In this document: in pieces, positions 2,674 through 30,314 of the stretch
Position numbering within the stretch: the stretch's first letter is position 1
Layout of the letters: each line of letters starts with the position of its first letter
Made by a program: the position numbers and the translations under genes
Assembly: GCA_030066875.1 (NCBI GenBank)
Contig: JASJAS010000005.1
Span: 6,080-70,079, forward strand
Reading direction: 5' to 3'
Length of the DNA stretch: 64,000 nt
DNA from: Acidimicrobiia bacterium
GTDB taxonomy: Bacteria; Actinomycetota; Acidimicrobiia; Spongiisociales; UBA5794
The notes under the pieces: generated by a model
The model's input: only the letters and a program-made list of their open reading frames with translations
What the model was told of the DNA's origin: nothing
The model's database searches: none

Positions 2674-2703
2674 TTGACGTGAAGGCAGGTTCATCCGTAG
2701 TCT
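2674..2703 (+). promoter_or_regulatory. Sigma-70-like promoter candidate TTGACG-18-TAGTCT
   Basis: Hexamers read directly. The -10 ends 3 nt before operator site S2. Confidence 0.35.
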
Positions 2704-2705: not shown

Positions 2706-2721
2706 GCGTGATCGATTATCG
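2706..2721. promoter_or_regulatory. Operator-like site S2 (GCGTGATCGATTATCG)
   Basis: Contains ATCGATTATCG. It is intergenic and lies immediately downstream of a candidate -10, about 283 bp upstream of the ATG at 3004. Confidence 0.55.
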
Positions 2722-3003
2722 AGGATCGTTGTGGATCATGGTCGAGAGCCAATGAGGGCAGGCTGTTCCGCTCGCCTCGAACGTCCCTGCAGATTCGTTT
2801 GCTCCCCAAGCAGCACTCACGTCTTTCCGCTGTCAATGCTGTTTCGCCGTGCGGAACAGACATCATCCGTCACCGGCTGTCGGTCGCGGCGCGTCCCGAG
2901 GGAGCCGCACCGAGATCGCCGCGATCACGAAGGGAGATGAAGCGCAACCTTGGCCGCTGACGGCCATCAGGACACGTAGTTGGACAGGAAGGAGATCCGC
3001 CGT

Positions 3004-4761
3004 ATGGCAGATACCAGCAAGGTAGTTGCCCAGTTCCTGGGTGACGAGAGTTTTCCGATCGAGTGGGAGAACGAGAAGGAAAAGGATCTGTTCTGGGTCT
3101 ACGACGACCTGCATTGCCCGCGGCCGGTGTCGCCGATGTACGACGACATCGCCAACTGGGTGAACACGTGCGATCACATGTTCCGCAGGTTCGGCACGCC
3201 GTTTGCCTCAGACTGGGTCAAGAAGATTGTCAACGGGTACCTGTACACCGCAGCGATCCCGTGTGATCCCGACATGGCCGTTCCGGCCACCGAATTCGCC
3301 AACGTCTACTACCCGCGGGTCCCCAAGGATGATCCCGAGTATGCGGCCAAGATTGGCGCCTACCTGGGTGCAGTGCTTCCGACATACGGTTCGAACTTCC
3401 CGGACTGGTGGCACAACCGTCTCGTCCCAGAGATGGACGCCAACCTGAAGTACCTCGAGTCGAAGATCGACATGTGGGAAGACATCCCGCTCATGGAGTG
3501 GGCAACGATTCTCGAAGATGCCATCGACATCGTGGACAGGCACTGGAAGATCCACTGGATGCTCAACTTCTCGCAGCTGTCGGCAACCTTGGCCTTGCGC
3601 GGAGCGCTCGGGGCCGCGTTGGGTGGCGAGGACAAGATCACCCAGAAGCATGAGGAGATTCTGGGCAGGCTGCAGAACTCGGCCGCGGACCGGAACTGGG
3701 ACGCCATCGAGGTGCTGGTCGGGCTCAAGGATGAGGTCAAGGGCGATCCCGTCCTCTCCGAGGCTTTCACTAACGAAGCCGGTGCAGATATTCTCGCGGC
3801 TCTCGAGGCCACCGATCGGGGCAAGGTATTCCTCGCCGGCGGTTTCAAGGCCTACCAGCGCGAGTTTGGCTGGCACGCGGTGTGGAGCCATGAGTTCATC
3901 TACCCCTCACGCTTTGAGACACCGGAGCCGGTGCTCGACGTGATCAAGGGCTATCTGGACTCCGATTACGACCACAGGCCAGTCGTAGCGCACCTGAAGG
4001 AAGACATCCAGGCAGCGTCGCTAGAGCTGCTTGAGGGTATTCCGGAGGGGCCAGAGCTCGATGCTTTGAAGGCCGCCAACGAGATCAACCTGAAGATGGC
4101 TCCGCTCACCCCGGATCACCACTTCTACATCGATCAGGGCACGCACCAGCACACCCGGGTCGTGTTGATCTGCATTGGCCGTCACCTGGTCAAGATGGGT
4201 CTGCTCAACGAGCCGGACGATGTCATCTACATGAAGTACAACGAGCTGCGCTATCTGATGGGCGATCCCAGCCTCATCGATGCCAAGGCCGTTGTTGCCG
4301 AGCGCCGGCGTATCCGCGCCGAGCAAGAGAAGATCCGGCCGCCGGACTTCATCGGTACTGCGACCGAAGATCAGCTCGCCTTCCCGTATCTGAATCTGTG
4401 GGGCTTCCCGGAGAAGCTGCACCACGATACGGAGACCAAGGGTCGGATTGAAGGTCTCGGCGTTTCGCCTGGTGTCATCGAGGCGACCGCCAAGGTCGTG
4501 GCCTCGCCGGCAGAGTTCGACGAGGTCAAGCAGGGCGACATCCTGGTTTGTCAGATGACGAACCCGGCGTGGACTCCCTTGTTCGCCATCATCGGCGGCA
4601 TCGTTTGTGACGCCGGCGGCATGGTGGCGCATCCGGCCGTCATGGCTCGCGAGTTCGGCATCCCCGGCGTCACCGGGACTGCGATTGCCACCCGCGAGAT
4701 CAAGACCGGCGACCGGCTCCGTGTTGACGGATCCAACGGTGTTGTGGAGATCCTCGGATAG
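3004..4761 (+). CDS. PEP-utilizing-enzyme family protein: non-canonical N-terminal region plus C-terminal swivel phosphohistidine domain, with no ATP-grasp and no PEP/pyruvate TIM barrel
   Basis: The C-terminus reads GVSPGVIEATAKVV..GDILVCQMTNPAWTPLF..GGMVAHPAVMAREFGIPGVTG, the mobile-domain signature with the His at codon 543. AGGAAGGAG RBS precedes the ATG at 3004. Confidence 0.8.
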   Translation: MADTSKVVAQFLGDESFPIEWENEKEKDLFWVYDDLHCPRPVSPMYDDIANWVNTCDHMFRRFGTPFASDWVKKIVNGYLYTAAIPCDPDMAVPATEFANVYYPRVPKDDPEYAAKIGAYLGAVLPTYGSNFPDWWHNRLVPEMDANLKYLESKIDMWEDIPLMEWATILEDAIDIVDRHWKIHWMLNFSQLSATLALRGALGAALGGEDKITQKHEEILGRLQNSAADRNWDAIEVLVGLKDEVKGDPVLSEAFTNEAGADILAALEATDRGKVFLAGGFKAYQREFGWHAVWSHEFIYPSRFETPEPVLDVIKGYLDSDYDHRPVVAHLKEDIQAASLELLEGIPEGPELDALKAANEINLKMAPLTPDHHFYIDQGTHQHTRVVLICIGRHLVKMGLLNEPDDVIYMKYNELRYLMGDPSLIDAKAVVAERRRIRAEQEKIRPPDFIGTATEDQLAFPYLNLWGFPEKLHHDTETKGRIEGLGVSPGVIEATAKVVASPAEFDEVKQGDILVCQMTNPAWTPLFAIIGGIVCDAGGMVAHPAVMAREFGIPGVTGTAIATREIKTGDRLRVDGSNGVVEILG

Positions 4762-4767: not shown

Positions 4768-4820
4768 CCCGCGATGAGTGAGTGCGCCCGGGCAAGACCC
4801 GGGCGCACGCTCATTGCGGG
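4768..4820 (+). terminator. Long imperfect hairpin (core GTGCGCCCGGG-caaga-CCCGGGCGCAC) after the swivel-His gene
   Basis: Inverted repeat read directly, starting 7 nt after the stop at 4761. Confidence 0.6.
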
Positions 4821-6592: not shown

Positions 6593-7567
6593 CTATCCGG
6601 ACATGGCTGAGATCGCGTCGACCACACGTTCTACCGACGGGATGGCCAGGTCTTCTAGCTCGCCGGCCGCCGGGAGGGGGATGTGTGGAGTGGTGACGCG
6701 GACAATGGGGCCGTCCAGATCCCAGAAGGCCTCCTCGGCGACGAGTGACGAGATCTCGGCACCCCAGCCCACCAGACGTGGGTTCTCCTCGACCGTGGCA
6801 AGCCGGGTGGTCTTGGCAACCGAATTCAAGATCGTCTGCGTGTCCAGAGGGACGAGCGAGCGTAGGTCAATGACCTCCGCCGAGATACCCAACCCGCCGA
6901 GAATCTTGGCGGCGTCGAGAGCGGTGTGAACCATGGCCGCCAGAGCGACGATCGTCACGTCATCGCCCTCACGCAGGACCCGTGCCGTGCCGAGGGTGTC
7001 GACGATTTCGCCGTCCGGGACTTCACCCTTGGTAGCAAACAGTGCTTTGTGCTCAAAGACAATCACCGGATCGGGGTCGCGGATCGCAGCAGCCATCAGG
7101 CCGATGACGTCGGCCGGAGTGGCCGGCGCCACTACCTTGAGGCCGGGAACTGCCATCGCCCAATTCTCGAGACTCTGGGCGTGCTGACCGCCAAAGCGAG
7201 ATCCGCCACCATTGGCCGTGCGAATCACCAGCGGCAGCTCGACTTGTCCGCCCGTCATGTACCGGGTCTTGGCGATCTGGTTGGCGACTATGTCCCAACA
7301 TGTCGCCAAGAAGTCGCTGAACATCAACTCCCCAACCGGAATCAGGCCGTTCATAGCGGCCCCCATGATCATTCCGGTGATGGCCTCCTCCGAGATAGGA
7401 GTGTCACGTACTCGCGTGGGTCCAAACTGCTCGTAGAGCCCAACCGTGGTCTTGAAGACGCCGCCGGCCTTGGCGACATCTTCGCCAATGAGGACAACAC
7501 GCTCATCGCGCTCCATCTCCTGGGCGAGCCCGCGGGCCACAGCGTCGCGATAACTCAGTTCCGCCAT
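6593..7567 (-). CDS. TPP-dependent 2-oxoacid/acetoin dehydrogenase E1 component, beta subunit
   Basis: MAELSYRDAVARGLAQEMERDERVVLIGEDV is a typical E1-beta N-terminus. The start at 7567 overlaps the alpha-subunit stop. The ORF-track start at 7759 is an upstream extension. Confidence 0.85.
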   Translation of the reverse strand: MAELSYRDAVARGLAQEMERDERVVLIGEDVAKAGGVFKTTVGLYEQFGPTRVRDTPISEEAITGMIMGAAMNGLIPVGELMFSDFLATCWDIVANQIAKTRYMTGGQVELPLVIRTANGGGSRFGGQHAQSLENWAMAVPGLKVVAPATPADVIGLMAAAIRDPDPVIVFEHKALFATKGEVPDGEIVDTLGTARVLREGDDVTIVALAAMVHTALDAAKILGGLGISAEVIDLRSLVPLDTQTILNSVAKTTRLATVEENPRLVGWGAEISSLVAEEAFWDLDGPIVRVTTPHIPLPAAGELEDLAIPSVERVVDAISAMSG

Positions 7568-8538
7568 GACGAGCCTCCATCGGCCCAGACGTCGGTCAGG
7601 AGTACGGCCGGATCGGGTGGGGGAGCGTTCTTCGAGGCCTCGGTAGCCGCGTCCACCTCGGCGGCTGCCTTGGCTTCGATCTCGTCGAGCTTCGCCGGCT
7701 CGACCCCCAACGACAACAGGCGTTCCCGGTAGATGTCGATGGGATCGCGCTTCAGCCACTCCTCGACTTCCTCGTCGGGCCGGTACTTCCCCGGATCAGC
7801 CCTCGAGTGTCCTTTGTGCCGATAGGTGAGCGCTTCTATCAGAGAGGGGCCCTCACCGGCGCGGGCCCGCTGGTAGGCGGCTACCGCGACTTCGTAGACG
7901 GCATCGGCGTCATTTCCGTCGACGACGATCCCTTCGAGACCGTATGCGGAGGCCCGATCGGCGGCGGGATGCTCGACCGCGATCACGTCGCTGATCGCCG
8001 TGTATTCCATGTAGAGGTTGTTCTCACAGACGAACACCACCGGGAGATCCCAGACGGCGGCCATATTGAGCGACTCGTGAAACGCCCCGATGTTGGTGGT
8101 CCCATCTCCGAAGAAACACACGGAAACCTGATCCGTACCTCGCAACTGCGCCGCCCACGCCGCTCCTGCCGCCACCGGTAAGTGGGCTCCGACTATGGCG
8201 TACGAGCCCATCGCGCCCTTACTCACGTCGGTGAGATGCATCGAGCCGCCTTTGGCCTCGCAGATGCCGTTCGAACGTCCCATCAGTTCACCCATCAGGG
8301 CGTTCATGGGTGCGCCCCGCAAGAGTGTGTGGTTGTGACCGCGGTAGGTGCAATACGACATGTCGTCGGGCTGCATGGCGACCGCGAACCCAGCAGCCAC
8401 GGCTTCCTGGCCGAGGCCCAGGTGCGTGGTGCCCTTGACGAGTCCTTGCATGAACAGGTCGTAGGCGCGCTTCTCGAAGTAACGGGCGCGCACCATGCCG
8501 TCATACATTGCCAGCCTGATGTCTAGTGCTATCTCCAT
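7555..8538 (-). CDS. TPP-dependent 2-oxoacid/acetoin dehydrogenase E1 component, alpha subunit
   Basis: TPP-binding motif GDGTTNIGAFHESLNMAAVWDLPVVFVCENN. Confidence 0.85.
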   Translation of the reverse strand: MEIALDIRLAMYDGMVRARYFEKRAYDLFMQGLVKGTTHLGLGQEAVAAGFAVAMQPDDMSYCTYRGHNHTLLRGAPMNALMGELMGRSNGICEAKGGSMHLTDVSKGAMGSYAIVGAHLPVAAGAAWAAQLRGTDQVSVCFFGDGTTNIGAFHESLNMAAVWDLPVVFVCENNLYMEYTAISDVIAVEHPAADRASAYGLEGIVVDGNDADAVYEVAVAAYQRARAGEGPSLIEALTYRHKGHSRADPGKYRPDEEVEEWLKRDPIDIYRERLLSLGVEPAKLDEIEAKAAAEVDAATEASKNAPPPDPAVLLTDVWADGGSSWRN

Positions 8539-8886: not shown

Positions 8887-10137
8887 ATGCCCACTGTGGG
8901 CCTTCTGGGCGCTCTTGACACGAAAGGTGCAGAATACGCGTTTCTGCGCGATCGGATCGAAGGATCCGGGTGCGGCGTGATCATGATCAATGCCGGCGTC
9001 ATGGCTGATCCGGATTACCCCGTGGACTATTCACGAGAGGATGTCGCTGCGGCGGCGGGGGTCGACATAACTGCACTATTGGCTGCAGGAGACCGCGGTG
9101 CGGCCGTGACCCGCCAAGCCGAAGGAGCCACCGCGCTCGTCGTCCGCCTTTTCGAGGAGGGTCGCATCGACGGGCTGCTGGGCATGGGGGGGTCGGGTGG
9201 TACCACGCTGGTGAGTCAGGCGATGCGTGGGCTCCCGGTGGGGTTTCCCAAGCTGCTCGTTTCGACAATGGCATCGGGAGATACGTCTCCATATGTGGAT
9301 ACTTCCGACATCACGATGATGTATTCCGTCGTCGACATCGCGGGAATCAACGCCGTTTCCGCGCAGATCCTGACCAACGCGGCCGCCGCCATCACCGGCA
9401 TGGCTGTTGGCTACGAATCGGGCCGACCGGTTTCTCGAGGGCGACCCGCCGTGGGAGCCACCATGTACGGGACCACAACTCCGTGTGTGAGCACCGCAAA
9501 GCGGTGGCTCGAGGACGCCGGCTTCGAGGTGTTGGTCTTCCACGCCAACGGTCCCGGAGGTCGGGCGATGGAGGCGTTGATGCGAGACGGCCACATCGCG
9601 GCGGCTCTCGACATAACCACGACCGAACTAACAGACGAGCTAGCCGGGGGTACAACCACGGCCGGCCCCGACCGCCTCGAATTGGCCGGGTCGCTCGGGC
9701 TTCCGCAGGTGGTTTCGGTCGGCAGTGTGGAGCAGATCACGTTCTCCCCGCCGAGCGCAATCCCCGCAGAGTATGCAGACCGGCTGTCGTACGAACACAA
9801 CCAATCGGTCACCCTGATTCGGAGTGACGCCAAGGAGATGGCACGACTGGGCCGTGTGATGAGCGACAAGCTCAACGCGGCCAAGGGGCCGGTGTCTGTC
9901 TTCCTGCCACTACGAGGCACCTCAGAGTATGCGGTCGCCGGCGCTGTATTCCATGACCCTGAGGCGGACGAAGCTCTCTTCGAGTCTCTCCGGGTCAACC
10001 TCGATCCCGAGGTCGAGTTGATCGAGATGGACACCCACATCAACGATCCCGTCTTCGCGGTAGCGATGGCCGAGAAACTCGCCGAGCTGTTCGGTGATCT
10101 GGAAGGGACTGTCAACCCGAAGGGGTCGACACCATGA
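8887..10137 (+). CDS. UPF0261 family protein (Tm-1-like N-terminal nucleotide-binding module)
   Basis: The N-terminus MPTVGLLGALDTKGAEYAFLRDRI and the overall glycine-rich pattern fit UPF0261. Its stop overlaps the next gene as ATGA. Confidence 0.7.
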   Translation: MPTVGLLGALDTKGAEYAFLRDRIEGSGCGVIMINAGVMADPDYPVDYSREDVAAAAGVDITALLAAGDRGAAVTRQAEGATALVVRLFEEGRIDGLLGMGGSGGTTLVSQAMRGLPVGFPKLLVSTMASGDTSPYVDTSDITMMYSVVDIAGINAVSAQILTNAAAAITGMAVGYESGRPVSRGRPAVGATMYGTTTPCVSTAKRWLEDAGFEVLVFHANGPGGRAMEALMRDGHIAAALDITTTELTDELAGGTTTAGPDRLELAGSLGLPQVVSVGSVEQITFSPPSAIPAEYADRLSYEHNQSVTLIRSDAKEMARLGRVMSDKLNAAKGPVSVFLPLRGTSEYAVAGAVFHDPEADEALFESLRVNLDPEVELIEMDTHINDPVFAVAMAEKLAELFGDLEGTVNPKGSTP

Positions 10138-10994
10138 ACGGACGAGAGGCGCTCGCCAGGCTGCGCAAAACGGTCGCCGACGGCGGAGTGATCATCGGCT
10201 CGGGAGCGGGGACCGGCATCTCGGCCAAGCTAGCCGAGGCCGGCGGTGCCGACCTGATCATCGTCTACAACTCCGGTCGGTACCGGATGGCCGGTCGCGG
10301 CTCGCTTTCCGGCATGATGCCCTACGGCGACGCTAACGCCATCGTGCTCGACATGGCCGGCGAGGTTCTGCCCATCGTCGGCAACACACCGGTCCTGGCG
10401 GGCGTCTGCGGAACGGACCCGTTTCGAATCATGGGGAGCTTTCTCGACACCGTCGCCGCCGCCGGCTTTGTAGGTGTGCAGAACTTCCCGACGGTGGGGC
10501 TAATCGATGGGACCTTCCGACAGAACCTCGAAGAGACCGGAATCAGCTATGACCTCGAGGTGGCGATGATCAAGTCGGCGAGGGAGAAGGGCTTGCTCAC
10601 CGCACCTTACGTATTCGATGCTCGTCAGGCCGAAGCGATGACTGGTGCCGGAGCCGATCTGGTTGTCGTCCATGTTGGGCTGACGGTGTCCGGATCAATC
10701 GGCGCCCAGACGGCTCGCTCGATGGATGAGTCCATCGACATGATCCAGGAACTCGGGGATGCCGCACGCGCGGTCAGAGATGACGTTCTAGTCCTGTTTC
10801 ACGGCGGTCCGATTGCCGCCCCCGAGGACGTTGAACACGTACTCACCCGCACCACCGGAACCCATGGCTTCTTTGGCGCCTCGAGTGTTGAGCGTTTGCC
10901 GGTCGAGGCTGCGGTGACAGAAACGATGAAACAGTTCAAGAAAACAGCCAGGGGACGGCACACCTCTGGTGCCGGAAAGGAAGCACTCATATGA
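10134..10994 (+). CDS. Phosphoenolpyruvate hydrolase-like TIM-barrel protein (usual partner of UPF0261)
   Basis: GGADLIIVYNSGRYRMAGRGSL..GVQNFPTVGLIDG pattern. Translationally coupled to the UPF0261 gene. Confidence 0.7.
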   Translation: MNGREALARLRKTVADGGVIIGSGAGTGISAKLAEAGGADLIIVYNSGRYRMAGRGSLSGMMPYGDANAIVLDMAGEVLPIVGNTPVLAGVCGTDPFRIMGSFLDTVAAAGFVGVQNFPTVGLIDGTFRQNLEETGISYDLEVAMIKSAREKGLLTAPYVFDARQAEAMTGAGADLVVVHVGLTVSGSIGAQTARSMDESIDMIQELGDAARAVRDDVLVLFHGGPIAAPEDVEHVLTRTTGTHGFFGASSVERLPVEAAVTETMKQFKKTARGRHTSGAGKEALI

Positions 10995-11067
10995 CTGACG
11001 ACCAGCAAGTCCTCAGCGGCGAGGCGATCTCCTGTGAGTGCGGTGCCGAACGAGGAGGGAGAACGTC

Positions 11068-11772
11068 ATGACCCTTCCGACGGAACGCCGCTCCGATCCC
11101 GTCGCTCGCAATGTGCTGAGCGAGCAGGTCAAAGACCGCATCTTGCAGTGGATTCTCGAAGGAGAGCTGGCGCCCGGCTCACGCATCATCGAGACCAGGG
11201 TGGCCCGCGAACTCGGGGTCAGCCAAGCCCCGGTCCGCGAAGCGCTGCGTGACCTGACGACCCTGGGTGTTGTCGAGATGCAGCCCTATCGCGGCGCGAG
11301 CGTCCGACAGCCAAGCAAAACAGATCTAGTGGAGGCAATGGAGGTGCGCGCTGAACTGGAGGCGTTGGCCGCCCGCCAAGCCGCCACCAGGATGACGCAA
11401 GCGTGCCTTGACGAATTGCAGGACCTCATCGATGAGATGCACCGGCTGGCCGAGGCGGGAGACGCGCATGGTCACGCTCTCAACAACACCGCCTTCCACG
11501 GCACGGTTGTCCGGGCGTCCGGCAACAAGACGTTGTTGCGCATGTGGTCGATGCTGGAGCCCTATGCCAGGACCTATGTAACGGCGATGCTGCCTGGTAC
11601 CGACCTCGTGTGGCTGGGGGATCGTCATAGCGCGATCGTTGAGGCCCTCACGGCCGGTGATCCAGAACAGGCAGCAGAGACGATGCGAGTGCATGCCCGT
11701 GAAGCCGAGGAGCTGGTGCTGGCCATGGATGAAGCGGCGTTTGGTGGAGCGGAGGTCAACGCTGACCTCTAG
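11068..11772 (+). CDS. GntR-family transcriptional regulator with FCD (FadR C-terminal-like) domain
   Basis: Winged-HTH segment RIIETRVARELGVSQAPVREALRDL followed by a helical C-terminal domain. GGAGGGAG RBS precedes the ATG at 11068. Confidence 0.85.
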   Translation: MTLPTERRSDPVARNVLSEQVKDRILQWILEGELAPGSRIIETRVARELGVSQAPVREALRDLTTLGVVEMQPYRGASVRQPSKTDLVEAMEVRAELEALAARQAATRMTQACLDELQDLIDEMHRLAEAGDAHGHALNNTAFHGTVVRASGNKTLLRMWSMLEPYARTYVTAMLPGTDLVWLGDRHSAIVEALTAGDPEQAAETMRVHAREAEELVLAMDEAAFGGAEVNADL

Positions 11773-11865
11773 GTGAAGCTGAGAGTCCGGCCCGAACGTG
11801 TCCGGGCATTGACAAGTGAGAACGAAAGGCAGAGCCGCTCGGGCGGCTACAAAAAGGAGAAACGA

Positions 11866-12693
11866 ATGTTGCAGCTGTCAGAGGAGATGTCAGGCGGGAG
11901 TGCTCGACTCCGAGTCGACGTATACGGACCGGAGCCACGCGAGCACGTCCTCGAGGACATGAACTTCCTCAACTACCGGCTCGCCAAGGTGAACATCGAG
12001 CCCGAGGTGACCCTGCCCGAACCCGACATCGTCTGGCACCAGGAAGGTGATAAGTCCATCTCGTACGACGGCAAGCGGATGACCTTCGTTGGTGACTGGG
12101 CGGCCGGACCGCTGCAGAAGGTCGTGGTCACCATGCTGGCTCTCAAGATGGAAGCCGAGGGGCTCCATCCGTTCCACTCGGCGGCGGTCAACTATCGGGG
12201 CAAGACCATGCTGTTCCTCGGTGGCGAATCGAACCACGGCAAAAGCATGGGTCAGATCGAGGCCTGTCGTCGCGGCGGCTTGCTCGTCGCTACCGAGACG
12301 ACTGTGATTGACGAGGATGGCGTCGCCATCATGGGATCGGAAGATGTCTTCCTAAAGAAGCGCGCCGAGGGCACCGAACGGGCGGATAAGGCTGCACCGA
12401 ACAAAGGTGTCGAGAAGTTCTTCGGGTCGATGCCCACCTGGGACGACTTCGAAGGACCGACCAATATCGACCTCGTGATCGTCCCGGCGATCGACGGCAA
12501 CTTCGATCCCAGCACCGTCGAGATGGGCAAGTTCGAGGCCAGCTTCCAGACTCTGCACAGCTTGCAGAACTACTTCCTGCTGAACGAACTGCTTGCGGAG
12601 GGCCACGTCATGCCTATGGTCGATACCGAGGAGCTCAGGGCCAAGCGCGCCGAATACGTCAAGCGATTCGTTGCCCCCGGCCCTTCTTCATGA
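11866..12693 (+). CDS. Hypothetical P-loop protein with HPr-kinase C-terminal-like core
   Basis: HPFHSAAVNYRGKTMLFLGGESNHGKSMGQIEACRRGGLLVATETTVID mirrors the HprK layout (H-x-S/G-x-V .. G-x-S-x-x-GKS .. LVADD). AAGGAGA RBS precedes the ATG at 11866. Confidence 0.5.
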   Translation: MLQLSEEMSGGSARLRVDVYGPEPREHVLEDMNFLNYRLAKVNIEPEVTLPEPDIVWHQEGDKSISYDGKRMTFVGDWAAGPLQKVVVTMLALKMEAEGLHPFHSAAVNYRGKTMLFLGGESNHGKSMGQIEACRRGGLLVATETTVIDEDGVAIMGSEDVFLKKRAEGTERADKAAPNKGVEKFFGSMPTWDDFEGPTNIDLVIVPAIDGNFDPSTVEMGKFEASFQTLHSLQNYFLLNELLAEGHVMPMVDTEELRAKRAEYVKRFVAPGPSS

Positions 12694-12755
12694 TTCGGGC
12701 TGCCACGCCCCAGGTGCTGCTCGATGAAGTAGACAAGGTCTTCTGAGAGGTAACC

Positions 12756-13625
12756 ATGAACCGTTTTCAGTACGCCCGACCGGAGACGGTGGGCGAGGCC
12801 GTGGCCCTGCTGGAAGAGCATGGCGACGATGCACGCCTGCTCGCCGGCGGTACCGACCTGGTGATCGAACTGCGCAACCGATGGGTTGAGCCCAAGGTCG
12901 TCATCGACTTGAAGCGGATTCCCGACCTGGCGCCGGCAATCGTAGAGCGTGATGGATTCCTGTCGATCAGTGCTTCCACTGTGATGACCGATATCGCCGA
13001 GGATGAGCGGGTGCAACGGTACTTTCCGGCATTGGTCGAGTCGGCTGTGGTGGTCGGTTCGGTGCAGATACGGGCCCGGGCCACCATGGCAGGCAACATA
13101 TGCAACGGTTCTCCTGCGGCGGACACGGCACCACCATTGCTGGTGTACGACGCAGTCGTTGTAGTCGCGGGGTCGGACGGCGAGCGGCGGGTCCCCATCG
13201 ATGACTTCATCGTGGGCCCCGGCAAGACGGCATTGCAGCGCGGCGAGCTGGTGACCGCGATTGAACTGCCCATTCCGGAGCGCCCCTACGGTGCGGCATA
13301 TACACGCCTGACCCGGCGTCGCGGCACGGACCTCGCATCGATCACCTTGTGCGCCGGTGTCGACGCAGACGGGCAGGCTCGAATCGCCTACGGCAGTGTC
13401 GGCCCGAGGGCTTTCCTCGTCGAGGACGAATCCGGCATCCTCGGTGACTCAACCATCCCCTCTGAGGACAAGATTGATTCGCTCGACCAGATCTTTTACC
13501 GGGCTAGTCCATCCCTGAAATCATTGCGCGCCAGCCCCGACTATCGGCTGGCGATGCTGCGCGTGCTCGGGGCGCGCGCTCTGGAAACTGCGATTGGCCG
13601 GCTGACCAAGGAACTGGTCTCATGA
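12756..13625 (+). CDS. Mo-hydroxylase FAD-binding medium subunit (CoxM/XdhB-like)
   Basis: LLAGGTDLVIEL FAD-binding motif. Its stop overlaps the next gene as ATGA. Confidence 0.85.
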   Translation: MNRFQYARPETVGEAVALLEEHGDDARLLAGGTDLVIELRNRWVEPKVVIDLKRIPDLAPAIVERDGFLSISASTVMTDIAEDERVQRYFPALVESAVVVGSVQIRARATMAGNICNGSPAADTAPPLLVYDAVVVVAGSDGERRVPIDDFIVGPGKTALQRGELVTAIELPIPERPYGAAYTRLTRRRGTDLASITLCAGVDADGQARIAYGSVGPRAFLVEDESGILGDSTIPSEDKIDSLDQIFYRASPSLKSLRASPDYRLAMLRVLGARALETAIGRLTKELVS

Positions 13626-14098
13626 ACCGAACCCTCACTATCGAAACAACCATCAACGGTCGGCGACGGTCGCTGGATGTCGCGGTCAACCACACGCTGC
13701 TCGACGTGTTGCGCGACGACATCGATCTGACCGGAACCAAGGAATGCTGCGTCGTCGGCGAGTGCGGTGCCTGCACTGTGATCATCGACGGTCGGCCGAT
13801 GAACTCATGTTTGATGCTCGCCGTTGAAATCGACGGGTCAGAGGTCACGACGGTAGAAGGCCTGGAACTGGAGGAGGGTCTCAGCCCCCTGCAGGGCGCG
13901 TTCCTCGACGAAGGTGCCACGCAGTGTGGGTTCTGTATTCCTGGTCAGCTGATGGCGGCAACCGCGTTGTTGCAGCAGAACCCAGATCCGACGGTGGAGG
14001 AGATCCAGGAAGGCCTCGCCGGCAACTTGTGTCGCTGTGCCGGATACGAACAGATCACTAAGGCTGTGCTGGCCGCGGCAAGGGGGGTGAAGCAATGA
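13622..14098 (+). CDS. Mo-hydroxylase [2Fe-2S] small subunit (CoxS-like)
   Basis: Cys clusters ECGACTV, QCGFCIPG and CRCAGY. Confidence 0.9.
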   Translation: MNRTLTIETTINGRRRSLDVAVNHTLLDVLRDDIDLTGTKECCVVGECGACTVIIDGRPMNSCLMLAVEIDGSEVTTVEGLELEEGLSPLQGAFLDEGATQCGFCIPGQLMAATALLQQNPDPTVEEIQEGLAGNLCRCAGYEQITKAVLAAARGVKQ

Positions 14099-16338
14099 AT
14101 GCTGTCGGCAGTTCACCGCGCCGGGGCGGTGGCTATGGGCGGGTCACAGGCCATCAGGAATACCTGGCAGACATCAAGCTCCCCGACGCCCTTCATGTGA
14201 AGCTGGTGACATTGGAGTGCGCTCGCGCCAGGATCAACGCGATCGATTCGACGGAGGCCGAGCAAGTGCCCGGCGTGCACTTCGTCATGACCGCCGCCGA
14301 CCTCCCCGACCCGATGCCTCGCTTTGGTCCGCAATTCCAAGATCGGCCCGTTATTGCCGTTGGGGAGACCAAGTACCACGGCGAACCGGTTGCAGCCGTG
14401 GCGGCTGAGACCAAGGATGCCGCCGAAGAGGCTGCCCTCCTGGTCAAAGTCGACTACACGAAGCTGGAGGACGGCATCTTCAGCGTCGCTGACGCGCTTG
14501 CTCCGGACGCAGTCCTGGTTCAAGACCCGGCGTTGCGCGGTGCCAGCTCGTTTGCCCAAACGAACATCATTGACGAGAAGCACTTCGGCTGGGGTGACAT
14601 AGACGACCAGGAGGCCCACCTGGTCGTCGAGGATTCGTTCCAGTTCCCGATGGTGACTCACTTCGCCATCGAGCCTCACGGATTCATGGCTGCTCCCGAC
14701 GGCGACGGAATCGAGGTTTGGAGCACGATTCAACATCCGTACCTACTTCAGAAGATCATGGCCAAGATGCTCGACCTGCCGCTGTCCAAGGTCCGGGTCC
14801 ACGCACCGGATCCGGGCGGCGGATTCGGCGGCAAACAGATCCCCAAATTCGAGCCGCTAGTGGCGTTCATGGCGTTGCGCGCCGGCCGCCCGGTGCGGCT
14901 GGTGCTCAGCCTTGACGAGACCTTTCAGCAGGTGCGCCGCTCGTCGGCCGAGATCCGGGTCAGGGCCGGATTCACCGCCGAAGGGGTCTTCACCTTCATG
15001 GACATAGAAACCAACTTCTTGGTTGGTGCCTACGTTGACATTGCCGACCGGGTCGTTTCGAAGTCGAGCTACTCCGGGGCAGGGCCTTACCGCATCCCGG
15101 CCGTCAAGATCATCGGTAGAACGATCTTGTCCCACACCACACCATCGACCGCGTTCCGCGGGTTCGGGATCCCACAGATCGGCTGGGCGCGAGAGTCGCT
15201 CATCGACGAGGCGGCGCTGCAATTGGGTATCGACCGCCTACAGATTCGGCTACTCAACCTGGCTCGTTACAAAGAGCCGTTCATCCCGAGCGAGGAGGCC
15301 GATGGCGATTGGGAGCAGACCGTACGCACAGCGGCGAAACGAATCGGTTGGGGTGATCCGCTGCCGCCGAATCGGGGTCGCGGCATCGCAGTTGGCCTCA
15401 AATCAGGTCCGACTACTGGCCTGTCCTATTCAACCGTCCGCTTGCTCTACGACGGCAGCGCCATGGTGTACGCCGGAACCTCAGACATGGGCCAAGGTGC
15501 CCGTACCATCTTCGCCCAGATTACGGCCGAAGAACTCGGCGTCCCGCTGGATGACATCACCGTCGTCATGGGGGACACCTCTGTCGTTCCTTACGATCAG
15601 CAGACCTCGGCCAGCCGATCCTCGGTGCTGATGGGAACTGCTGTGCAGCGCGCCTGTTTCGAGATCCAGGGCAAGGTCCGGGCGATGGCGGCGAAGCTCT
15701 ACAACGTCGACGAAGGCGATATCAAGGTCGACCAGGGAAGACTCCTGCTGCCAGACCGGGAGTTCAGCGTCGTCGACGTCATGCAGGAGGCTCTCGCCCC
15801 GCTCGGAGGTGAGGTGATCGGCAATGGCGAAATGCGGAAGGACAAGGAACCGGATCATCCGTTGGGAGGCACGGCCGCATTCTTCGAGTTCAACTGCACC
15901 GCGTCTGAGGTCGAGGTCGACATGGAGACCGGGCATGTCACCTTGGTGAAACACGTCACGGTGGGCGACGTCGGCAAAGCGCTCAACCCATTGCAGGTGA
16001 CCATGCAAGACGACGGTGCTGCCATCATGGGCCTGGGACACACCCTGATGGAGCACTACATATTCGACAACGAAGGGCGGGTGCGGAACATCGGGGCGAT
16101 CGACTACCGCATCCTCACCAGCATGGATCTGCCGCTCGATCTACACAGCGAGAGCGTGGAGAACGCCGACGGTCCCGGTCCCTACGGGATCAAAGGCGTG
16201 TCGGAAGGAAGTCTGCTCGTCACTGCCCCAGCAGTAGGGGCCGCAGTGCGCGAAGCGACGGGCAAAATAATCCGAGACCTACCGCTCACCCCACAGCGGG
16301 TGTGGGAAGCACTTCAGGAGGACGAGAATGGATCCTGA
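14095..16338 (+). CDS. Mo-hydroxylase molybdopterin-binding large subunit (xanthine dehydrogenase/aldehyde oxidase family)
   Basis: 747 aa, with an ATGA overlap to the small subunit. Motifs GGGFGGK and GPYGIKGVSEGSLL. Confidence 0.9.
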   Translation: MNAVGSSPRRGGGYGRVTGHQEYLADIKLPDALHVKLVTLECARARINAIDSTEAEQVPGVHFVMTAADLPDPMPRFGPQFQDRPVIAVGETKYHGEPVAAVAAETKDAAEEAALLVKVDYTKLEDGIFSVADALAPDAVLVQDPALRGASSFAQTNIIDEKHFGWGDIDDQEAHLVVEDSFQFPMVTHFAIEPHGFMAAPDGDGIEVWSTIQHPYLLQKIMAKMLDLPLSKVRVHAPDPGGGFGGKQIPKFEPLVAFMALRAGRPVRLVLSLDETFQQVRRSSAEIRVRAGFTAEGVFTFMDIETNFLVGAYVDIADRVVSKSSYSGAGPYRIPAVKIIGRTILSHTTPSTAFRGFGIPQIGWARESLIDEAALQLGIDRLQIRLLNLARYKEPFIPSEEADGDWEQTVRTAAKRIGWGDPLPPNRGRGIAVGLKSGPTTGLSYSTVRLLYDGSAMVYAGTSDMGQGARTIFAQITAEELGVPLDDITVVMGDTSVVPYDQQTSASRSSVLMGTAVQRACFEIQGKVRAMAAKLYNVDEGDIKVDQGRLLLPDREFSVVDVMQEALAPLGGEVIGNGEMRKDKEPDHPLGGTAAFFEFNCTASEVEVDMETGHVTLVKHVTVGDVGKALNPLQVTMQDDGAAIMGLGHTLMEHYIFDNEGRVRNIGAIDYRILTSMDLPLDLHSESVENADGPGPYGIKGVSEGSLLVTAPAVGAAVREATGKIIRDLPLTPQRVWEALQEDENGS

Positions 16339-17218
16339 GAAGGAAGTCGGACCGGTCAGGGATATGCCTGCGGCGAAAGTCGTTGAGGCTGCCCAGTTTG
16401 TTAAAACGGGCAAGAGCTACTCGCTTTCGGTTCCCCGGTTTCCGGGGATGCCACTCTTCCCGGGGCATCCGCCGTTCCAGGTGGTCAACTACCGGACCCC
16501 GCCCGGGATCATTGCTGGCAACGTGGAACCGTGGGGCCCGCCCAACGAGGTCAACCTCGGCTACATGGCGGAGTACCTGATGGCCTGTTCGCATTCAGGT
16601 GCGCACATCGACGGGCTAGCGCACATGACCATTGGCGAGGACAACCATTGGTACGGCGGCGGGAACACAGCGGACCACCTCACCGACCACGGGCCAAACT
16701 TTGGCGATGCCGCGAAGCTCCCGGCGTTCTTTACCCGGGGGGTCTTGCTCGATCCTCCAACGTACCGTGGAGTTGACGCACTGCCTGCTCACGAGCCGGT
16801 GAGTGCCGACGAGCTGCAGGCGGTCGCAGCGGCGCAGGGTGTCGAAGTGAAGCCTTGGGATGTTGTGCTCATCAGGACCGGCTATCTCAAATACTGGCCA
16901 GATGCCGAGAGGATGAATGAGCATCTCACCGCCGGGCCCGACCTATCGGCGGCGGAATGGCTCCTAGAAAGCGGCGTTGTTGCCACCGGCACCGACACCG
17001 AGACCTACGAAGTAATGCCAACACCGGATCGCGGTGATCCGCCCAATCCGCAGCCGGTGCACACGAAGCTGCTCATCGAGAACGGTATCTATCTACTGGA
17101 GAGCATCTACCTCGAGGACATTGCCCGTGACAAGGTGTACGAGTTCCTGTTTGTGATGTTGCCGCTGAAGATCAAGGGGGCAACCGGCTCGATGGTGGAC
17201 CCGCTCGTGGTCATCTAG
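16328..17218 (+). CDS. Cyclase-family (kynurenine formamidase/isatin hydrolase-like) metal-dependent hydrolase
   Basis: HSGAHIDGLAHM matches the HxGxHxDxxxH cyclase-family motif. It overlaps the upstream gene by 11 nt. Confidence 0.75.
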   Translation: MDPEKEVGPVRDMPAAKVVEAAQFVKTGKSYSLSVPRFPGMPLFPGHPPFQVVNYRTPPGIIAGNVEPWGPPNEVNLGYMAEYLMACSHSGAHIDGLAHMTIGEDNHWYGGGNTADHLTDHGPNFGDAAKLPAFFTRGVLLDPPTYRGVDALPAHEPVSADELQAVAAAQGVEVKPWDVVLIRTGYLKYWPDAERMNEHLTAGPDLSAAEWLLESGVVATGTDTETYEVMPTPDRGDPPNPQPVHTKLLIENGIYLLESIYLEDIARDKVYEFLFVMLPLKIKGATGSMVDPLVVI

Positions 17219-17242
17219 CCGAGGAAGCAATAGGAGCACGGA

Positions 17243-18286
17243 ATGAAAGCTCTGGTTGTCACCGAGCCGAACGAATTCGCCATCGAAGAGCTGCCGATGC
17301 CGGTCGCTGGCGAAAACGAGGTCGTCGCACGCGTGCGTGCAGTCTCGATCTGCGGCACGGACGCGCACTTGATCGCCGGACACTATCCGAATTTCTGGCC
17401 GCCGAGTTTTCCCTTCACTCCGGGTCACGAATGGGCCGGCGAGTTGGTCGAGGTGAGTTCAGGCGCCGCCGATTTGGGCTGGAAGGTTGGCGATCGGGTG
17501 TGCGGTACCTCACATGATGCCTGCGGGTTCTGCCAGAAGTGTGTGGAGGGGCGCTACAACCTGTGCGAGAACTACGGCAACATGGCGGTCCATCGCCAGT
17601 ACGGCCATAACTATCAGGGCAGTTTCGCCGAGTTCGTGCTCCACGGTGTCAAGTCGATCTTTCGTCTTCCCGACGAGATGGACTTCGCGACCGGTGCGGT
17701 GATCGATCCAGCGTCGATAGCCCTGCACACGGCAAACCGCGGAGGAGTGCGGCCCGGGGATACGGCCGTTGTATTCGGACCAGGGCCGGTCGGTTTGTTG
17801 GTGGCCGATGCGTGTCGCATCCGCGGCGCCGCCCACGTTATTGTCGTCGGCCGCGGTCAGCGGCTCGAGCTGGCTGCGTCGATGGGCAACGAGGTGATCA
17901 ACTTCGAGAAGGTGAACCCGGTGGGAGAGATACTGGAGATCACCGACGGTCACGGTGCCGATGTCATCCTGGACTGCGCCGGCGTATCTGAGACGTTCCA
18001 GTGGTCAATTCCAGCGCTACGCAAAGGCGGTCGGATTGCCGCGGTCGGGATTCCCGTGCAACGGGTCGATCTCGACTTCCAGGAGCTCGTGCTCTACGAG
18101 AAGGAACTCGTCGGGGTGCGGGCGACCGCAGGGGAGATGCGTCACGTGTTACCGCTGGTCGCCGATGGCTCGATCCGGGCCAAGGAGCTGATCACGCATC
18201 GCTTCTCTCTCGATGAGTTTGCGGAGGCCCTGGCGACCTTCAACGAGCGTCGCGGCGGTGCCATGAAGGTGATTGTCGAACCGTGA
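17243..18286 (+). CDS. Zinc-dependent medium-chain alcohol/polyol dehydrogenase
   Basis: CGTDAHL, GHEWAG and the GPGPVGLL Rossmann motif. Confidence 0.85.
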   Translation: MKALVVTEPNEFAIEELPMPVAGENEVVARVRAVSICGTDAHLIAGHYPNFWPPSFPFTPGHEWAGELVEVSSGAADLGWKVGDRVCGTSHDACGFCQKCVEGRYNLCENYGNMAVHRQYGHNYQGSFAEFVLHGVKSIFRLPDEMDFATGAVIDPASIALHTANRGGVRPGDTAVVFGPGPVGLLVADACRIRGAAHVIVVGRGQRLELAASMGNEVINFEKVNPVGEILEITDGHGADVILDCAGVSETFQWSIPALRKGGRIAAVGIPVQRVDLDFQELVLYEKELVGVRATAGEMRHVLPLVADGSIRAKELITHRFSLDEFAEALATFNERRGGAMKVIVEP

Positions 18287-18753
18287 GAATCCTGGTTCTT
18301 TGCACCGGGAACATCGGTCGTTCGCCGCTGGCAGAAGTGATGTTGCGCAAGGCGCTGGCGAGCGGTCTTGGCGTCGAGGACGCAGAGTTGGCGGATCGCG
18401 GATTTGTCGTGACCTCTGCGGGAATCGCCGCACCCGAAGGTCATCCCGCATCGCGCCGCAGCATCGCGGTAGCCGCCGGTCGGGGGCTCGACCTGAGCAA
18501 TCACAGCGCCACTCAGCTGACCGCGCTGGCTGTGGCTGCGGCCGACCGCATCTACTGCATGGACGGGGGCCAGCTGGCGGCAGTGAAGGCAATCGATCCT
18601 GCAGCGGCTTCGAAGACCGGGTTGATCGCAGGGGAGGGGATCGAAATACCCGACCCCCACTACCAGGACGACGAGTTCTTCTGGCGGGTTGCCCAACAGG
18701 TCGAAGCGGCCGCGCTGAGCCGGGCTGCAGAGCTTCTCGAACAGGTCTCGTAG
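18283..18753 (+). CDS. Low-molecular-weight protein-tyrosine-phosphatase family protein
   Basis: CX5R(S) loop LCTGNIGRS and the downstream IPDP Asp loop. Its start overlaps the ADH stop as GTGA. Confidence 0.8.
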   Translation: MRILVLCTGNIGRSPLAEVMLRKALASGLGVEDAELADRGFVVTSAGIAAPEGHPASRRSIAVAAGRGLDLSNHSATQLTALAVAAADRIYCMDGGQLAAVKAIDPAAASKTGLIAGEGIEIPDPHYQDDEFFWRVAQQVEAAALSRAAELLEQVS

Positions 18754-18809: not shown

Positions 18810-18825
18810 ACATAATCGATTATCG
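18810..18825. promoter_or_regulatory. Operator-like site S5 (ACATAATCGATTATCG)
   Basis: Contains ATAATCGATTATCG. It covers the predicted transcription start, 15 bp upstream of the GTG at 18840. An extra half-site-like CGATAAT lies at 18801-18807. Confidence 0.65.
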
Positions 18826-24254: not shown

Positions 24255-25151
24255 TCATTGGGTGTCCTCAATCTCCGGAAAGGGCACGTAGATGCGCTGG
24301 CGTGCGTGGAACCGAAGATGTCGGGTATAGCCCGCAGCTCGGGCAGCGGCGATGACTTCCGGCATACCCCACGCCGTATCACCAGGTCGGTGCGCATCCG
24401 ACGCCATGGTCATCGGTACGCCTGCATCGTGGAACATCCGGAGGAAGGTGGGAGCCGGATAGACCTCTTTGGGAGCCTGCCGCAAACCTGCACTCGATAC
24501 CTCGACTGCAGTGCTGGTGGTAACGGCCGCCTGCACGACGGGTGCGTACAGATCGACCGGAGCAGGGTCGAGATGGGCGCCGGTGCGCTTCACGAAGTCG
24601 GCGTGTGCGAGTACGTCGACCAAGCCTGAAGCCGCCAGGGCAGCTTCGGCCGCGAAGTACTTCTCGTAGGACCTGCGCACTCCCAGGCGCGCAAACTCTG
24701 CGAGACCCTCCGCTCGATCCGGCCACCATGCTCCCACCCAGTGCACCGACCCAATGAGGAAGTCGAATGGATAGGGCGCGAGCAGTTCGACAATCTTCTC
24801 TTCGGTTCCCGGCTGGAAGTCGACCTCCAAGCCCAGTTTGACCGGCAAGCCTCGCTGCTTGGCATCGAGCACGACCTCGACGTACCTGCCAAGCGACAGG
24901 TTTCGCTCCGTGCGCACGATTTCGGCGATCTCGGCGGCAAGGAGTGGGTTCGGATCTTCTTCCCACCAGCGCCCCAGAACCGACTCCGATTCGGCGCAGC
25001 GATAGAGATGCTCGGTGAAGCCGACCTCGGTGCAACCGCGCTCGAGCGCGGTCTCGACGAAGCTATCTATGTAGCCCGGCGGATACTCGCCCATCGGGGG
25101 CACGTCCGACTCGGGATGGTGGGGATGAAGATGGAGGTGATAGTCGCTCAT
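24255..25151 (-). CDS. PHP-domain phosphoesterase (histidinol-phosphatase HisK-like family)
   Basis: N-terminal MSDYHLHLHPHH metal-binding motif. The start at 25151 overlaps the MFS stop (TAATG). Confidence 0.75.
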   Translation of the reverse strand: MSDYHLHLHPHHPESDVPPMGEYPPGYIDSFVETALERGCTEVGFTEHLYRCAESESVLGRWWEEDPNPLLAAEIAEIVRTERNLSLGRYVEVVLDAKQRGLPVKLGLEVDFQPGTEEKIVELLAPYPFDFLIGSVHWVGAWWPDRAEGLAEFARLGVRRSYEKYFAAEAALAASGLVDVLAHADFVKRTGAHLDPAPVDLYAPVVQAAVTTSTAVEVSSAGLRQAPKEVYPAPTFLRMFHDAGVPMTMASDAHRPGDTAWGMPEVIAAARAAGYTRHLRFHARQRIYVPFPEIEDTQ

Positions 25152-26332: not shown

Positions 26333-26374
26333 AGCGGCCCGGCCCGCCGCATTGGCGCCGGCCTCAACAAGCCT

Positions 26375-27232
26375 CTAACTGGTAGCCGTCAGTTTCTCGT
26401 AAAGCGACTTGGCGTTCCACTCGTTGATGTAATCCATCATGTATTCCTGGCCGATATCCACCGGGTAGCGGTCTTTGAAGTGGACCCGCTCCATCGTCTC
26501 TTCCTTCGACCAGCCCTTGGCGACGGCGACGGCGACGGCCGTCTTCCACTCCATGAGCATCGAGCGTTGTACTGCCAGGTACTCCTTGGTCGTTACCGGA
26601 CCGTGGCCGGGTACAACGTGATCGACTTCCAGTTGCCCGATTCGTTCGAGAGCGGCCAGCCAGCCATCGACATCAGACGTCATTAACCAGGTCTGGCATT
26701 CGCTGAAGATCGTATCGCCGGTGAACACCGCCCGTTCCTCGGGAACATGAACGGCAATCTGCCCCGGTGTATGTCCCGGCGTGTGGAGAAGCTCAAACGT
26801 ATGTCCACCCACCCGGAGCGTCAGATCACCGCTGAAGACGATCTGGCCCTTGTTGGGATCGGCGTAATACTCGTCGCGATCGGGGAAGATCTCCTCGCCA
26901 GCGGGATCGTCGGTCGGTAGCGCCTCTTTGGCATATGCAAACGGATCGAGTTCGGGACCGACAACCATGAAGTTGTCATAGACGCCCTGATGGTGGACGA
27001 CTTGGCCCGCGCCCTTGAAGTAGTAGTTGCCAAAGATGTGGTCGACGTGATGCTCGGTGTTGATGACGTAGCGGATCGGACCGTGCTGCTCCGCGTCCTT
27101 TCTCATCTGAACGGCCTTGGTAGGCAGCTGCGGTGTGTCGATTACGACGACGCCATCGGATGTCGTTACATAGCTCGGGTTGCAGCCGCGCACCTTGGTT
27201 TCGGTGAAGATATTGCTGGTGACGTTCTCCAT
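26375..27232 (-). CDS. Metallo-beta-lactamase-fold hydrolase
   Basis: INTEHHVDH (HxHxDH) and downstream HTPGHTPG motifs. GGAG RBS. Confidence 0.8.
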   Translation of the reverse strand: MENVTSNIFTETKVRGCNPSYVTTSDGVVVIDTPQLPTKAVQMRKDAEQHGPIRYVINTEHHVDHIFGNYYFKGAGQVVHHQGVYDNFMVVGPELDPFAYAKEALPTDDPAGEEIFPDRDEYYADPNKGQIVFSGDLTLRVGGHTFELLHTPGHTPGQIAVHVPEERAVFTGDTIFSECQTWLMTSDVDGWLAALERIGQLEVDHVVPGHGPVTTKEYLAVQRSMLMEWKTAVAVAVAKGWSKEETMERVHFKDRYPVDIGQEYMMDYINEWNAKSLYEKLTATS

Positions 27233-27244
27233 TGGTTCTCCTGC

Positions 27245-28030: not shown

Positions 28031-28071
28031 CGGTTCCCTCTCTTTAGTCACCTTCAGTTGTGGTGGCACCT

Positions 28072-29885: not shown

Positions 29886-29910
29886 GAATGCTGTCCTCCT
29901 CGGATGAGCT

Positions 29911-30276: not shown

Positions 30277-30314
30277 GAAGCGCCTCCTTGGGCTCCACTG
30301 CTCATCAGCTGAAC

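Follow-up and report, generated by a model that had tools for sequence, protein, structure and literature searches.

Not until 2025 were two-component small-molecule dikinases, in which the phosphohistidine domain and the ATP-grasp domain reside in separate polypeptides, recognised as a subfamily; a handful of them act on phenolics. Enzymes of this type use ATP to phosphorylate a small substrate by way of a phospho-His intermediate, with AMP as a product. HpeH is the acceptor subunit of one of them, HpeHI (Dexter 2025; PMC12167813), and its relatives CreH and PpsA act together with ATP-grasp-only subunits of the HpeI, CreI and PpsB type. In the HpeH family the swivel histidine takes the beta-phosphate of ATP at the ATP-grasp domain of the partner and delivers it to the phenolic substrate; the activity of HpeHI is lost with H581Q, HpeH alone moves phosphate between substrates, and rifampicin phosphotransferase (RPH) is its sole structural relative over the whole length, at about 20% identity (PMC12167813). 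The present work examines a gene of similar architecture in a 64,000-nt stretch of DNA from an Acidimicrobiia bacterium (GenBank assembly GCA_030066875.1, contig JASJAS010000005.1). The whole stretch is referred to as the window and provides the numbering for all coordinates; the gene lies at 3004-4761 on the forward strand and its product is called P0001.

Ensifer adhaerens HP1 provides a further described system, the 3hpd cluster, in which orf10 ("PEP-utilizing protein mobile subunit", PEP being phosphoenolpyruvate) and orf9 ("pyruvate-phosphate dikinase", PPDK) lie beside the molybdenum (Mo)-hydroxylase HpdA. Work in a heterologous host and gene disruption established that both are required for the conversion of 3-hydroxypyridine into 2,5-dihydroxypyridine, the mechanism being left open (bioRxiv 10.1101/2020.01.08.898148), and nothing further on the mechanism of orf9 and orf10 was found in the literature searched.

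The architecture of P0001 is itself not new; it was already familiar from PpsA before the 2025 work on HpeH formalised it. The evidence presented below strongly favours P0001 as a dikinase acceptor subunit. The whole explanation, in which it would be the acceptor component of a split RPH-like small-molecule dikinase that receives phosphate from a second protein (P0122, encoded at 18840-20984) and serves the neighbouring Mo-hydroxylase pathway, is considered probable.

A Swivel-Histidine Protein Related to Rifampicin Phosphotransferase

The gene is open over 585 codons without an internal stop and encodes a 585-aa protein; a GGAGA Shine-Dalgarno sequence lies 8 nt 5' of the ATG at 3004, and the alignment of 33 homologues begins at residue 1. 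Pfam assigns residues 509-579 to PF00391, the mobile domain of PEP-utilising enzymes (E 9e-22), and nothing else; neither PF01326 (PPDK_N) nor PF02896 (PEP-utilizers_C) was detected down to E<=1. The putative phosphoryl carrier His543 lies within GGMVAHPAVMAREFGIPG and is the same residue in all 33 aligned homologues. It belongs to a GGxxxH motif in which the upstream T/S of the longer form, T/SxxGGxxxH, is Cys535 in P0001 and Thr in most homologues, and the C-terminal region as a whole aligns to the His domain at the RPH C-terminus. The original prediction, made from the letters of the sequence, had described a swivel protein with His543 lacking both the ATP-grasp and the PEP/pyruvate barrel and had anticipated PF00391 as the only domain match; both points were borne out.

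The N-terminal region was compared by means of structure and family models. The AlphaFold2 (AF2) model of P0001 has a mean pLDDT of 75.8 and a pTM of 0.77, with residues 1-130 at low confidence. In Foldseek searches it matched over its whole length only the RPH of the RPH-Lm structures 5hv1, 5fbu and 5fbt (E 7.6e-19, TMq 0.67, ~610 columns, 20% identity), a situation equal to that of HpeH, while the matches to PPDK, Enzyme I and pyruvate kinase were confined to the swivel domain. Several NCBIfam models were matched collinearly but below threshold: RPH, over its C-terminal two thirds, PigC and RedH, and stand-alone PRK08296 "hypothetical" families. These matches start at about residue 222, and one weak match covers the N-terminus. 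The homologues of P0001 carry a precomputed annotation of PF27448 (Rph_4th) plus PF00391. The scores of P0001 itself are below the cut-offs of the PRK08296 subfamilies (NF006153, NF006151 and others; 183 bits vs. 578 and 154 vs. 693), and that against the RPH model NF041857 is 121 bits for a cut-off of 999, over model positions 682-864 only.

No ATP-grasp or TIM-barrel match was found in the N-terminal region by Pfam (E<=1) or Foldseek. P0001 thus shares only the swivel domain with PEP synthase and PPDK, which combine it with an ATP-grasp and a TIM barrel, and falls outside RPH, in which the ATP-grasp forms the N-terminus of one continuous chain and for which an equivalog score is defined. What it does show are the features of an acceptor subunit: a swivel histidine in GGxxxH, an RPH-type N-terminal domain and a polypeptide devoid of ATP-grasp. 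The earlier reading had likened the protein to the His-carrying subunit of split PEP-synthase-like enzymes and to the substrate-binding plus swivel portion of RPH, and the Foldseek comparison with RPH, the NCBIfam matches and the Rph_4th annotation support this likeness. Its description of the first ~480 residues was right in that they match neither ATP-grasp nor TIM barrel; they are however not unassigned, being homologous to the rifampin-binding domain of RPH.

P0001 has the same domain order as HpeH (Rhodococcus rhodochrous GD02), CreH (Corynebacterium glutamicum), PpsA (Thauera aromatica) and AcvA/B (Sphingobium SYK-6), without ATP-grasp in the chain, and with them it also has in common the catalytic histidine of GGxxxH, a catabolic setting and a phosphatase gene in the cluster. 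It differs from these proteins in Cys535, which occupies the T/S place, in its scores far below the PRK08296 cut-offs, in its vicinity to a Mo-hydroxylase instead of a biotin carboxylase or phenylphosphate carboxylase, and in its partner: no ATP-grasp-only partner was found in its genome, and its likely donor, of PPDK type, has a swivel histidine of its own and an extra domain. The substrate-binding and His domains of P0001 have the fold of their counterparts in RPH-Lm, and the swivel mechanism is presumably the same; RPH-Lm, however, keeps an N-terminal ATP-grasp in the same chain, serves antibiotic resistance and not catabolism, and is only about 20% identical.

A PPDK-Like Protein as Candidate Phosphoryl Donor

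The first ~500 residues of P0122 consist of a PPDK ATP-grasp and a swivel domain, score above the cut-off of NCBIfam PRK05878 and contain an invariant histidine (His408); in Foldseek, the AF2 model showed 41% identity to PPDK structures over ~537 columns. Residues ~505-714 (20340-20984) replace the PEP/pyruvate barrel of PPDK by a confidently modelled region that begins like a winged helix and continues with long helices. No Pfam or NCBIfam assignment was obtained for the C-terminal 250 residues, and Foldseek of the full-length protein matched the PPDK part only. A search restricted to the C-terminal domain gave 791 matches, almost only in ~710-aa proteins of the same architecture. The genome from which the window derives (81% complete) has three PPDK_N loci, each with a swivel domain, of which only P0122 belongs to the regulon described below. 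An ATP-grasp-only gene was not found in this 81% complete assembly, so the separate partner of the described systems is not seen here. A fourth swivel-domain open reading frame (ORF) of the same genome, located outside the window at a contig end (G000:C114:13351-14232), has a 692-aa frame and a weak PPDK_N match.

Relatives of P0001 were collected by a scan of species-level genomes, which gave at least 544, and neighbourhood counts were taken from the best 80 (56-96% identity); partner genes were counted within 10 kb in the 39 well-flanked loci, defined by at least 8 kb on both sides of the P0001 orthologue. Thirty-one of these 39 contain an ATP-grasp gene, which is a P0122 orthologue in 25 and an ATP-grasp-only gene in 6; no locus has both and 8 have neither. 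The latter are all close Acidimicrobiia relatives, in which P0122 may lie at a greater distance, as in the window, where it is 14 kb from P0001; it was located for only two of the 8, at a distance of ~13 kb in G198 and on a different contig in G297. Among all 80 orthologous loci, 10 have an ATP-grasp-only gene. In G074 (98% complete) the operon holds an ATP-grasp-only gene, of PEP-synthase/RPH type, and no P0122 orthologue occurs anywhere in the genome. In the sample of the class, a full-length P0122 orthologue occurs in 6 of the 9 other P0001-bearing genomes, and one further genome has P0122 only.

Linkage and regulation point in the same direction. An identical 9-mer operator motif precedes the genes of both P0001 and P0122, the P0122 orthologue lies directly 5' of the P0001 orthologue in L009 and G222, and in many Chloroflexota loci it stands at the end of the P0001 orthologue's operon. 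The pairing with the product of the gene at 18840, proposed in the original prediction, is thus supported by the shared operator, by adjacency in relatives and by a distribution complementary to that of the ATP-grasp-only partners. P0122 is on balance the favoured phosphoryl donor of P0001, and the simplest reading of the distribution is that the HpeI-type subunit has been non-orthologously displaced by P0122.

An additional ATP-grasp-only gene in G078 belongs to a separate canonical pair (L113, G078:C94:22000-36000). This locus encodes a canonical two-component dikinase, with a 367-aa ATP-grasp-only protein, a HAD phosphatase and a 572-aa swivel-His acceptor, together with genes for a short-chain dehydrogenase/reductase (SDR), E1 and an ABC transporter.

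Conserved Gene Neighborhood and Distribution

The best 80 relatives of P0001 belong to Acidimicrobiia and to Chloroflexota (Limnocylindria, Chloroflexia, Thermomicrobiales). Genes of a CoxM/S/L-type Mo-hydroxylase adjoin the orthologue in every one of the 39 well-flanked loci. In most relatives the orthologue is part of an operon in which the GntR and Mo-hydroxylase genes follow it directly and UPF0261 often immediately precedes it, a place between UPF0261 and GntR in an operon like that found at 8887-18753 in the window (Table 1). The GntR gene is an immediate neighbour in 54 of the 80 loci. Within the class, only 10 of 301 sampled genomes carry a P0001 orthologue, all of them from one order, and the gene is therefore accessory.

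An orthologous system occurs in a cultured organism, Thermomicrobium roseum DSM 5159, whose megaplasmid encodes a full-length P0001 orthologue (TRD_RS09590, 46% identical). The accompanying cluster (TRD_RS09590-09635) comprises a branched-chain amino acid (BCAA)-type ABC transporter, UPF0261, a PEP-hydrolase-like protein, GntR, a cyclase, CoxM/L/S and a 323-aa ATP-grasp-only gene (TRD_RS09615). It resembles the window in the orthologue, UPF0261, PEP-hydrolase-like, GntR, cyclase and CoxL/M/S genes and differs from it by having a canonical ATP-grasp-only gene and neither a P0122-type protein nor a P-loop protein; the cluster is uncharacterised.

This P-loop protein, which in the window is encoded between GntR and CoxM, has no Pfam or NCBIfam assignment beyond a weak match to PEPCK_ATP (E 0.066). 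It is encoded in 47 of the 80 loci, 23 of which have P0122, and in none of the 10 with the ATP-grasp-only variant; a 205-aa hypothetical protein of T. roseum shows no similarity to it. As it is absent with the ATP-grasp-only variant and often present with P0122, the P-loop protein may belong to the P0122-type system as its third component.

Two side observations concern genes that accompany the P0001 gene or its cluster in relatives. Upstream of P0001, at 1-2630, the window encodes a second Mo-hydroxylase large subunit, the 5' end of which is off the window, and a GFO/IDH/MocA oxidoreductase; in the closest relatives (L033-L040) the orthologue is preceded by these two genes as well. A pair of genes for the alpha and beta E1 subunits of a thiamine pyrophosphate (TPP)-dependent dehydrogenase (6593-8538, minus strand) is part of the regulon, with no E2/E3 gene nearby, and adjoins the cluster in many relatives.

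Proposed Function and Alternative Explanations

Architecture, fold homology, the invariant histidine, the common operator motif and gene linkage are observed; that P0001 is catalytic, which protein is its partner, how the phosphoryl group travels and what kind of substrate is used are inferred as follows. The helical N-terminal domain of P0001 would bind a small substrate that bears a hydroxyl group and is probably heteroaromatic, phenolic or enolic, and the swivel domain would carry a phosphoryl group on His543 from the ATP-grasp of a second protein to the bound substrate. The co-regulated P0122 would most likely be that second protein, in the place of the usual ATP-grasp-only subunit. Since P0122 has a swivel histidine of its own, the group may travel by a His-to-His relay or His543 may be loaded directly at the ATP-grasp of P0122. 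The phosphorylated compound would be hydroxylated by the neighbouring CoxMSL-type Mo-hydroxylase and then handled by downstream enzymes, with the cyclase-type hydrolase, the dehydrogenases and the TPP enzymes processing the hydroxylated product. The low-molecular-weight protein tyrosine phosphatase (LMW-PTP), encoded by the last gene of the 8887-18753 operon, may later remove the phosphate, which recalls the phosphatase step of the Hpe pathway.

The best experimental analogue is the Ensifer 3hpd cluster, from which the proposal of a hydroxylated heteroaromatic, phenolic or enolic compound derives. In both cases dikinase-type genes adjoin a multi-subunit Mo-hydroxylase, and in Ensifer they are genetically required for the reaction of that enzyme on a hydroxylated N-heterocycle; orf9 and orf10 are likened to the present proteins by their description only, and HpdA differs in having a separate SRPBCC subunit.

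Several observations weigh against this proposal. The ATP-grasp of P0122 is of PPDK type, unlike that of the known partners and of the ATP-grasp-only genes within the operons, which is of PEP-synthase/RPH type, and with its invariant His408 and its unassigned C-terminal domain P0122 could work as an enzyme on its own. G126 (95% complete) has a P0001 orthologue, and neither P0122 nor an ATP-grasp-only gene was detected there; because the neighbouring luciferase-like gene is also without a close orthologue in that genome, the region may be absent or unassembled. With the own genome at 81% completeness, a canonical partner could likewise be unassembled. P0001 itself stays far under the PRK08296 cut-offs (the 183 vs. 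578 bits given above), and its 130 N-terminal residues are those modelled with low confidence.

A more elaborate arrangement is a multi-part phosphorelay of a kind not so far described, with P0001 as terminal carrier and P0122 as a truncated PPDK, in which phosphate would pass from ATP to P0122 (His408) and on to His543 or the substrate pocket, the P-loop protein would assist, and phosphorylation would be obligatory before Mo-hydroxylation. This is regarded as possible but doubtful; if true, Mo-hydroxylation would be coupled to phosphorylation in a pathway that is widespread among Acidimicrobiia and Chloroflexota.

Other sources of phosphate and other roles were considered as well. Some UPF0261 proteins, such as MarK, are ATP-dependent kinases of aromatic compounds (PMC12624787), and a UPF0261 gene, with or without the PEP-hydrolase-like gene, lies directly 5' of the orthologue in L009-L011, L013-L015, L018, L020, L099, L102, L110 and T. 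roseum, so that His543 might be charged from PEP or ATP by the MarK-like kinase and/or the PEP-hydrolase-like TIM barrel in a distributed system similar to Enzyme I or PPDK. However, within 10 kb UPF0261 is found in 8 and the PEP-hydrolase-like gene in 4 of the 39 well-flanked loci, against 31 with an ATP-grasp gene, MarK acts alone, yields ADP and uses no swivel carrier (PMC12624787), and no transfer from a swivel domain to PF09370 is known; this route is held to be improbable. An equally low probability is given to P0001 being a ligand-sensing regulatory or accessory factor that would, for instance, control or assist maturation of the Mo-hydroxylase or modulate GntR. The frequent contact with the GntR gene noted above would fit such a role, as would the winged-helix-like start of the P0122 C-terminal region in the model, the lack of a detected phosphorylated intermediate in Ensifer (bioRxiv 10.1101/2020.01.08.898148) and the existence of PEP-synthase-like regulators, to judge from the title of one paper (PMC10948481). 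The strict conservation of the catalytic histidine and of the whole RPH-like substrate domain speaks instead for an enzyme, its close architectural relatives are proven enzymes (PMC12167813), and a phosphatase gene accompanies these systems (LMW-PTP here, HAD in the paralogous cluster), as in the Hpe pathway.

The top structural match of P0001 is an antibiotic-resistance enzyme, and it might be asked whether the protein is the acceptor half of an antibiotic-inactivating phosphotransferase or the frameshifted remnant of a full-length PEP synthase or RPH. The identity to RPH is only ~20%, and the context is catabolic throughout (Mo-hydroxylase, cyclase, dehydrogenases, transporter). The 120 best homologues are nearly all of 577-595 aa with like ends, and hundreds of homologues keep the length and ends of P0001, which argues against a fragment. 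The upstream DNA has no ATP-grasp coding potential, a 78-aa ORF 5' of the gene giving no family match. Origin as a frameshifted PEP synthase fragment was accordingly rejected, and the antibiotic-related or remnant reading as a whole is very improbable. The two findings that the original prediction had named as decisive against itself, a complete N-terminal ATP-grasp and a frameshifted gene, were seen neither in the Pfam and Foldseek searches nor in the homologue lengths.

The acceptor role in a split dikinase is therefore retained as the preferred explanation. Three aspects of it appear to be undescribed in the literature searched: that the P0001 branch is strictly coupled to Mo-hydroxylases in two phyla, that a PPDK-like protein, which has a second swivel and a new domain, takes the place of the ATP-grasp-only subunit, and that a P-loop protein accompanies the system. 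With its 544 or more relatives, the branch would bring this type of dikinase into a new pathway of marine and soil Actinomycetota and Chloroflexota, one that probably handles hydroxylated N-heterocycles or compounds like them, and could explain the need for dikinase genes in 3-hydroxypyridine hydroxylation. The apparent swap of a simple ATP-grasp subunit for P0122 provides a natural experiment on the exchange of phosphoryl carriers between modules, and T. roseum constitutes a cultured source of an orthologous system.

Leader, Operator-Like Sites and Regulon

The core palindrome TCGATTATCGA lies ~280 nt 5' of the P0001 ATG. The exact 9-mer CGATTATCG, with core TCGAT[T/A]ATCGA, occurs seven times in the window, each time in an intergenic position ahead of a gene or operon (Table 1), for a chance expectation of ~0.5 in 128 kb of two-strand sequence by our own estimate. 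A block formed by TTGACG, 18 nt, TAnnCT and the operator is conserved in the two closest relatives, L008 and L012, where the leader of ~290 nt is poorly conserved in sequence apart from this block and the Shine-Dalgarno sequence. A strict sigma-70 scan made no call at the promoter-like element, which is put forward on its conservation in the two relatives and would place a transcription start near 2710. No known RNA or riboswitch was found in the leader by Rfam at E<=1, and a consensus scan for T-tract terminators made no call at the hairpin 3' of the stop, which is without a T tract.

The earlier description of an own operator, a leader of about 300 nt and a strong terminator thus holds for the palindrome, for a leader of ~280-290 nt and for the strength of the hairpin. 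The gene 3' of P0001 has its own operator, and it is reasonable to take P0001 as monocistronic in this genome, as had been proposed. This does not extend to most relatives, and because their orthologues stand inside the operon ahead of GntR and the Mo-hydroxylase genes, the monocistronic state is a derived one.

Table 1. Coordinates of features in the 64,000-nt window.
Feature	Position	Strand	Basis or remark
9-mer CGATTATCG site	1546		5' of GFO/IDH/MocA oxidoreductase
Promoter-like element TTGACG (2674-2679), 18-nt spacer, TAGTCT (2698-2703)	2674-2703	+	conserved in L008 and L012
Operator-like site GATCGATTATCGAGGAT, core palindrome at 2712-2722	2710-2726		repeated 9-mer; invariant in L008 and L012 leaders
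9-mer CGATTATCG site	2713		5' of P0001
Long 5' leader, ~280-290 nt	2727-3003	+	similar length in L008 and L012
P0001 predicted substrate-binding domain, homologue of RPH rifampin-binding domain (Rph_4th in homologues), residues 1-478	3004-4437	+	Foldseek, NCBIfam, PF27448 of homologues
P0001 phosphohistidine swivel domain, residues 479-585 and stop; His543 codon 4630-4632	4438-4761	+	PF00391, invariant His543, RPH alignment
Terminator-like GC-rich hairpin 3' of stop	4768-4820	+	dG (folding free energy) -48.1 kcal/mol, z -8.4 vs. shuffles
9-mer CGATTATCG double site	4877 (- strand) and 4884		5' of methylmalonate-semialdehyde-dehydrogenase-like gene
9-mer CGATTATCG site	8679		between divergent E1 alpha/beta pair and UPF0261 operon
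Ancestral host operon: UPF0261, PEP-hydrolase-like, GntR, P-loop, CoxM/S/L, cyclase, zinc-dependent alcohol dehydrogenase (Zn-ADH), LMW-PTP	8887-18753	+	Pfam; relatives
UPF0261 (MarK/Tm-1-like kinase) and PEP-hydrolase-like TIM-barrel genes, operon head	8887-10994	+	
GntR/FCD regulator	11038-11772	+	
P-loop protein, 306 aa	11773-12693	+	HprK-like GxxxxGKS core
CoxM/S/L Mo-hydroxylase	12756-16338	+	
9-mer CGATTATCG site	18817-18825		5' of PPDK-like P0122 gene
P0122, likely phosphoryl donor, 714 aa: PPDK-type ATP-grasp, swivel His408, unannotated ~210-aa C-terminal domain	18840-20984	+	Pfam, NCBIfam, AF2, Foldseek
9-mer CGATTATCG site	30322		5' of cupin, split-transketolase, SDR, metallo-beta-lactamase-fold (MBL), major facilitator superfamily (MFS), PHP operon

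Altogether the palindrome marks six promoter regions, and the regulon comprises ~25-30 genes. The GntR/FCD regulator encoded in the window is the obvious candidate for binding to these sites, and the pathway substrate is its likely inducer. Besides a transketolase split into two genes, one for the N and one for the C half, one of the operator-controlled operons (24255-30321, minus strand) encodes a cupin, an SDR, a metallo-beta-lactamase-fold protein, an MFS transporter and a PHP-domain protein, and it is conserved beside the P0122 orthologues in G078 and G297.

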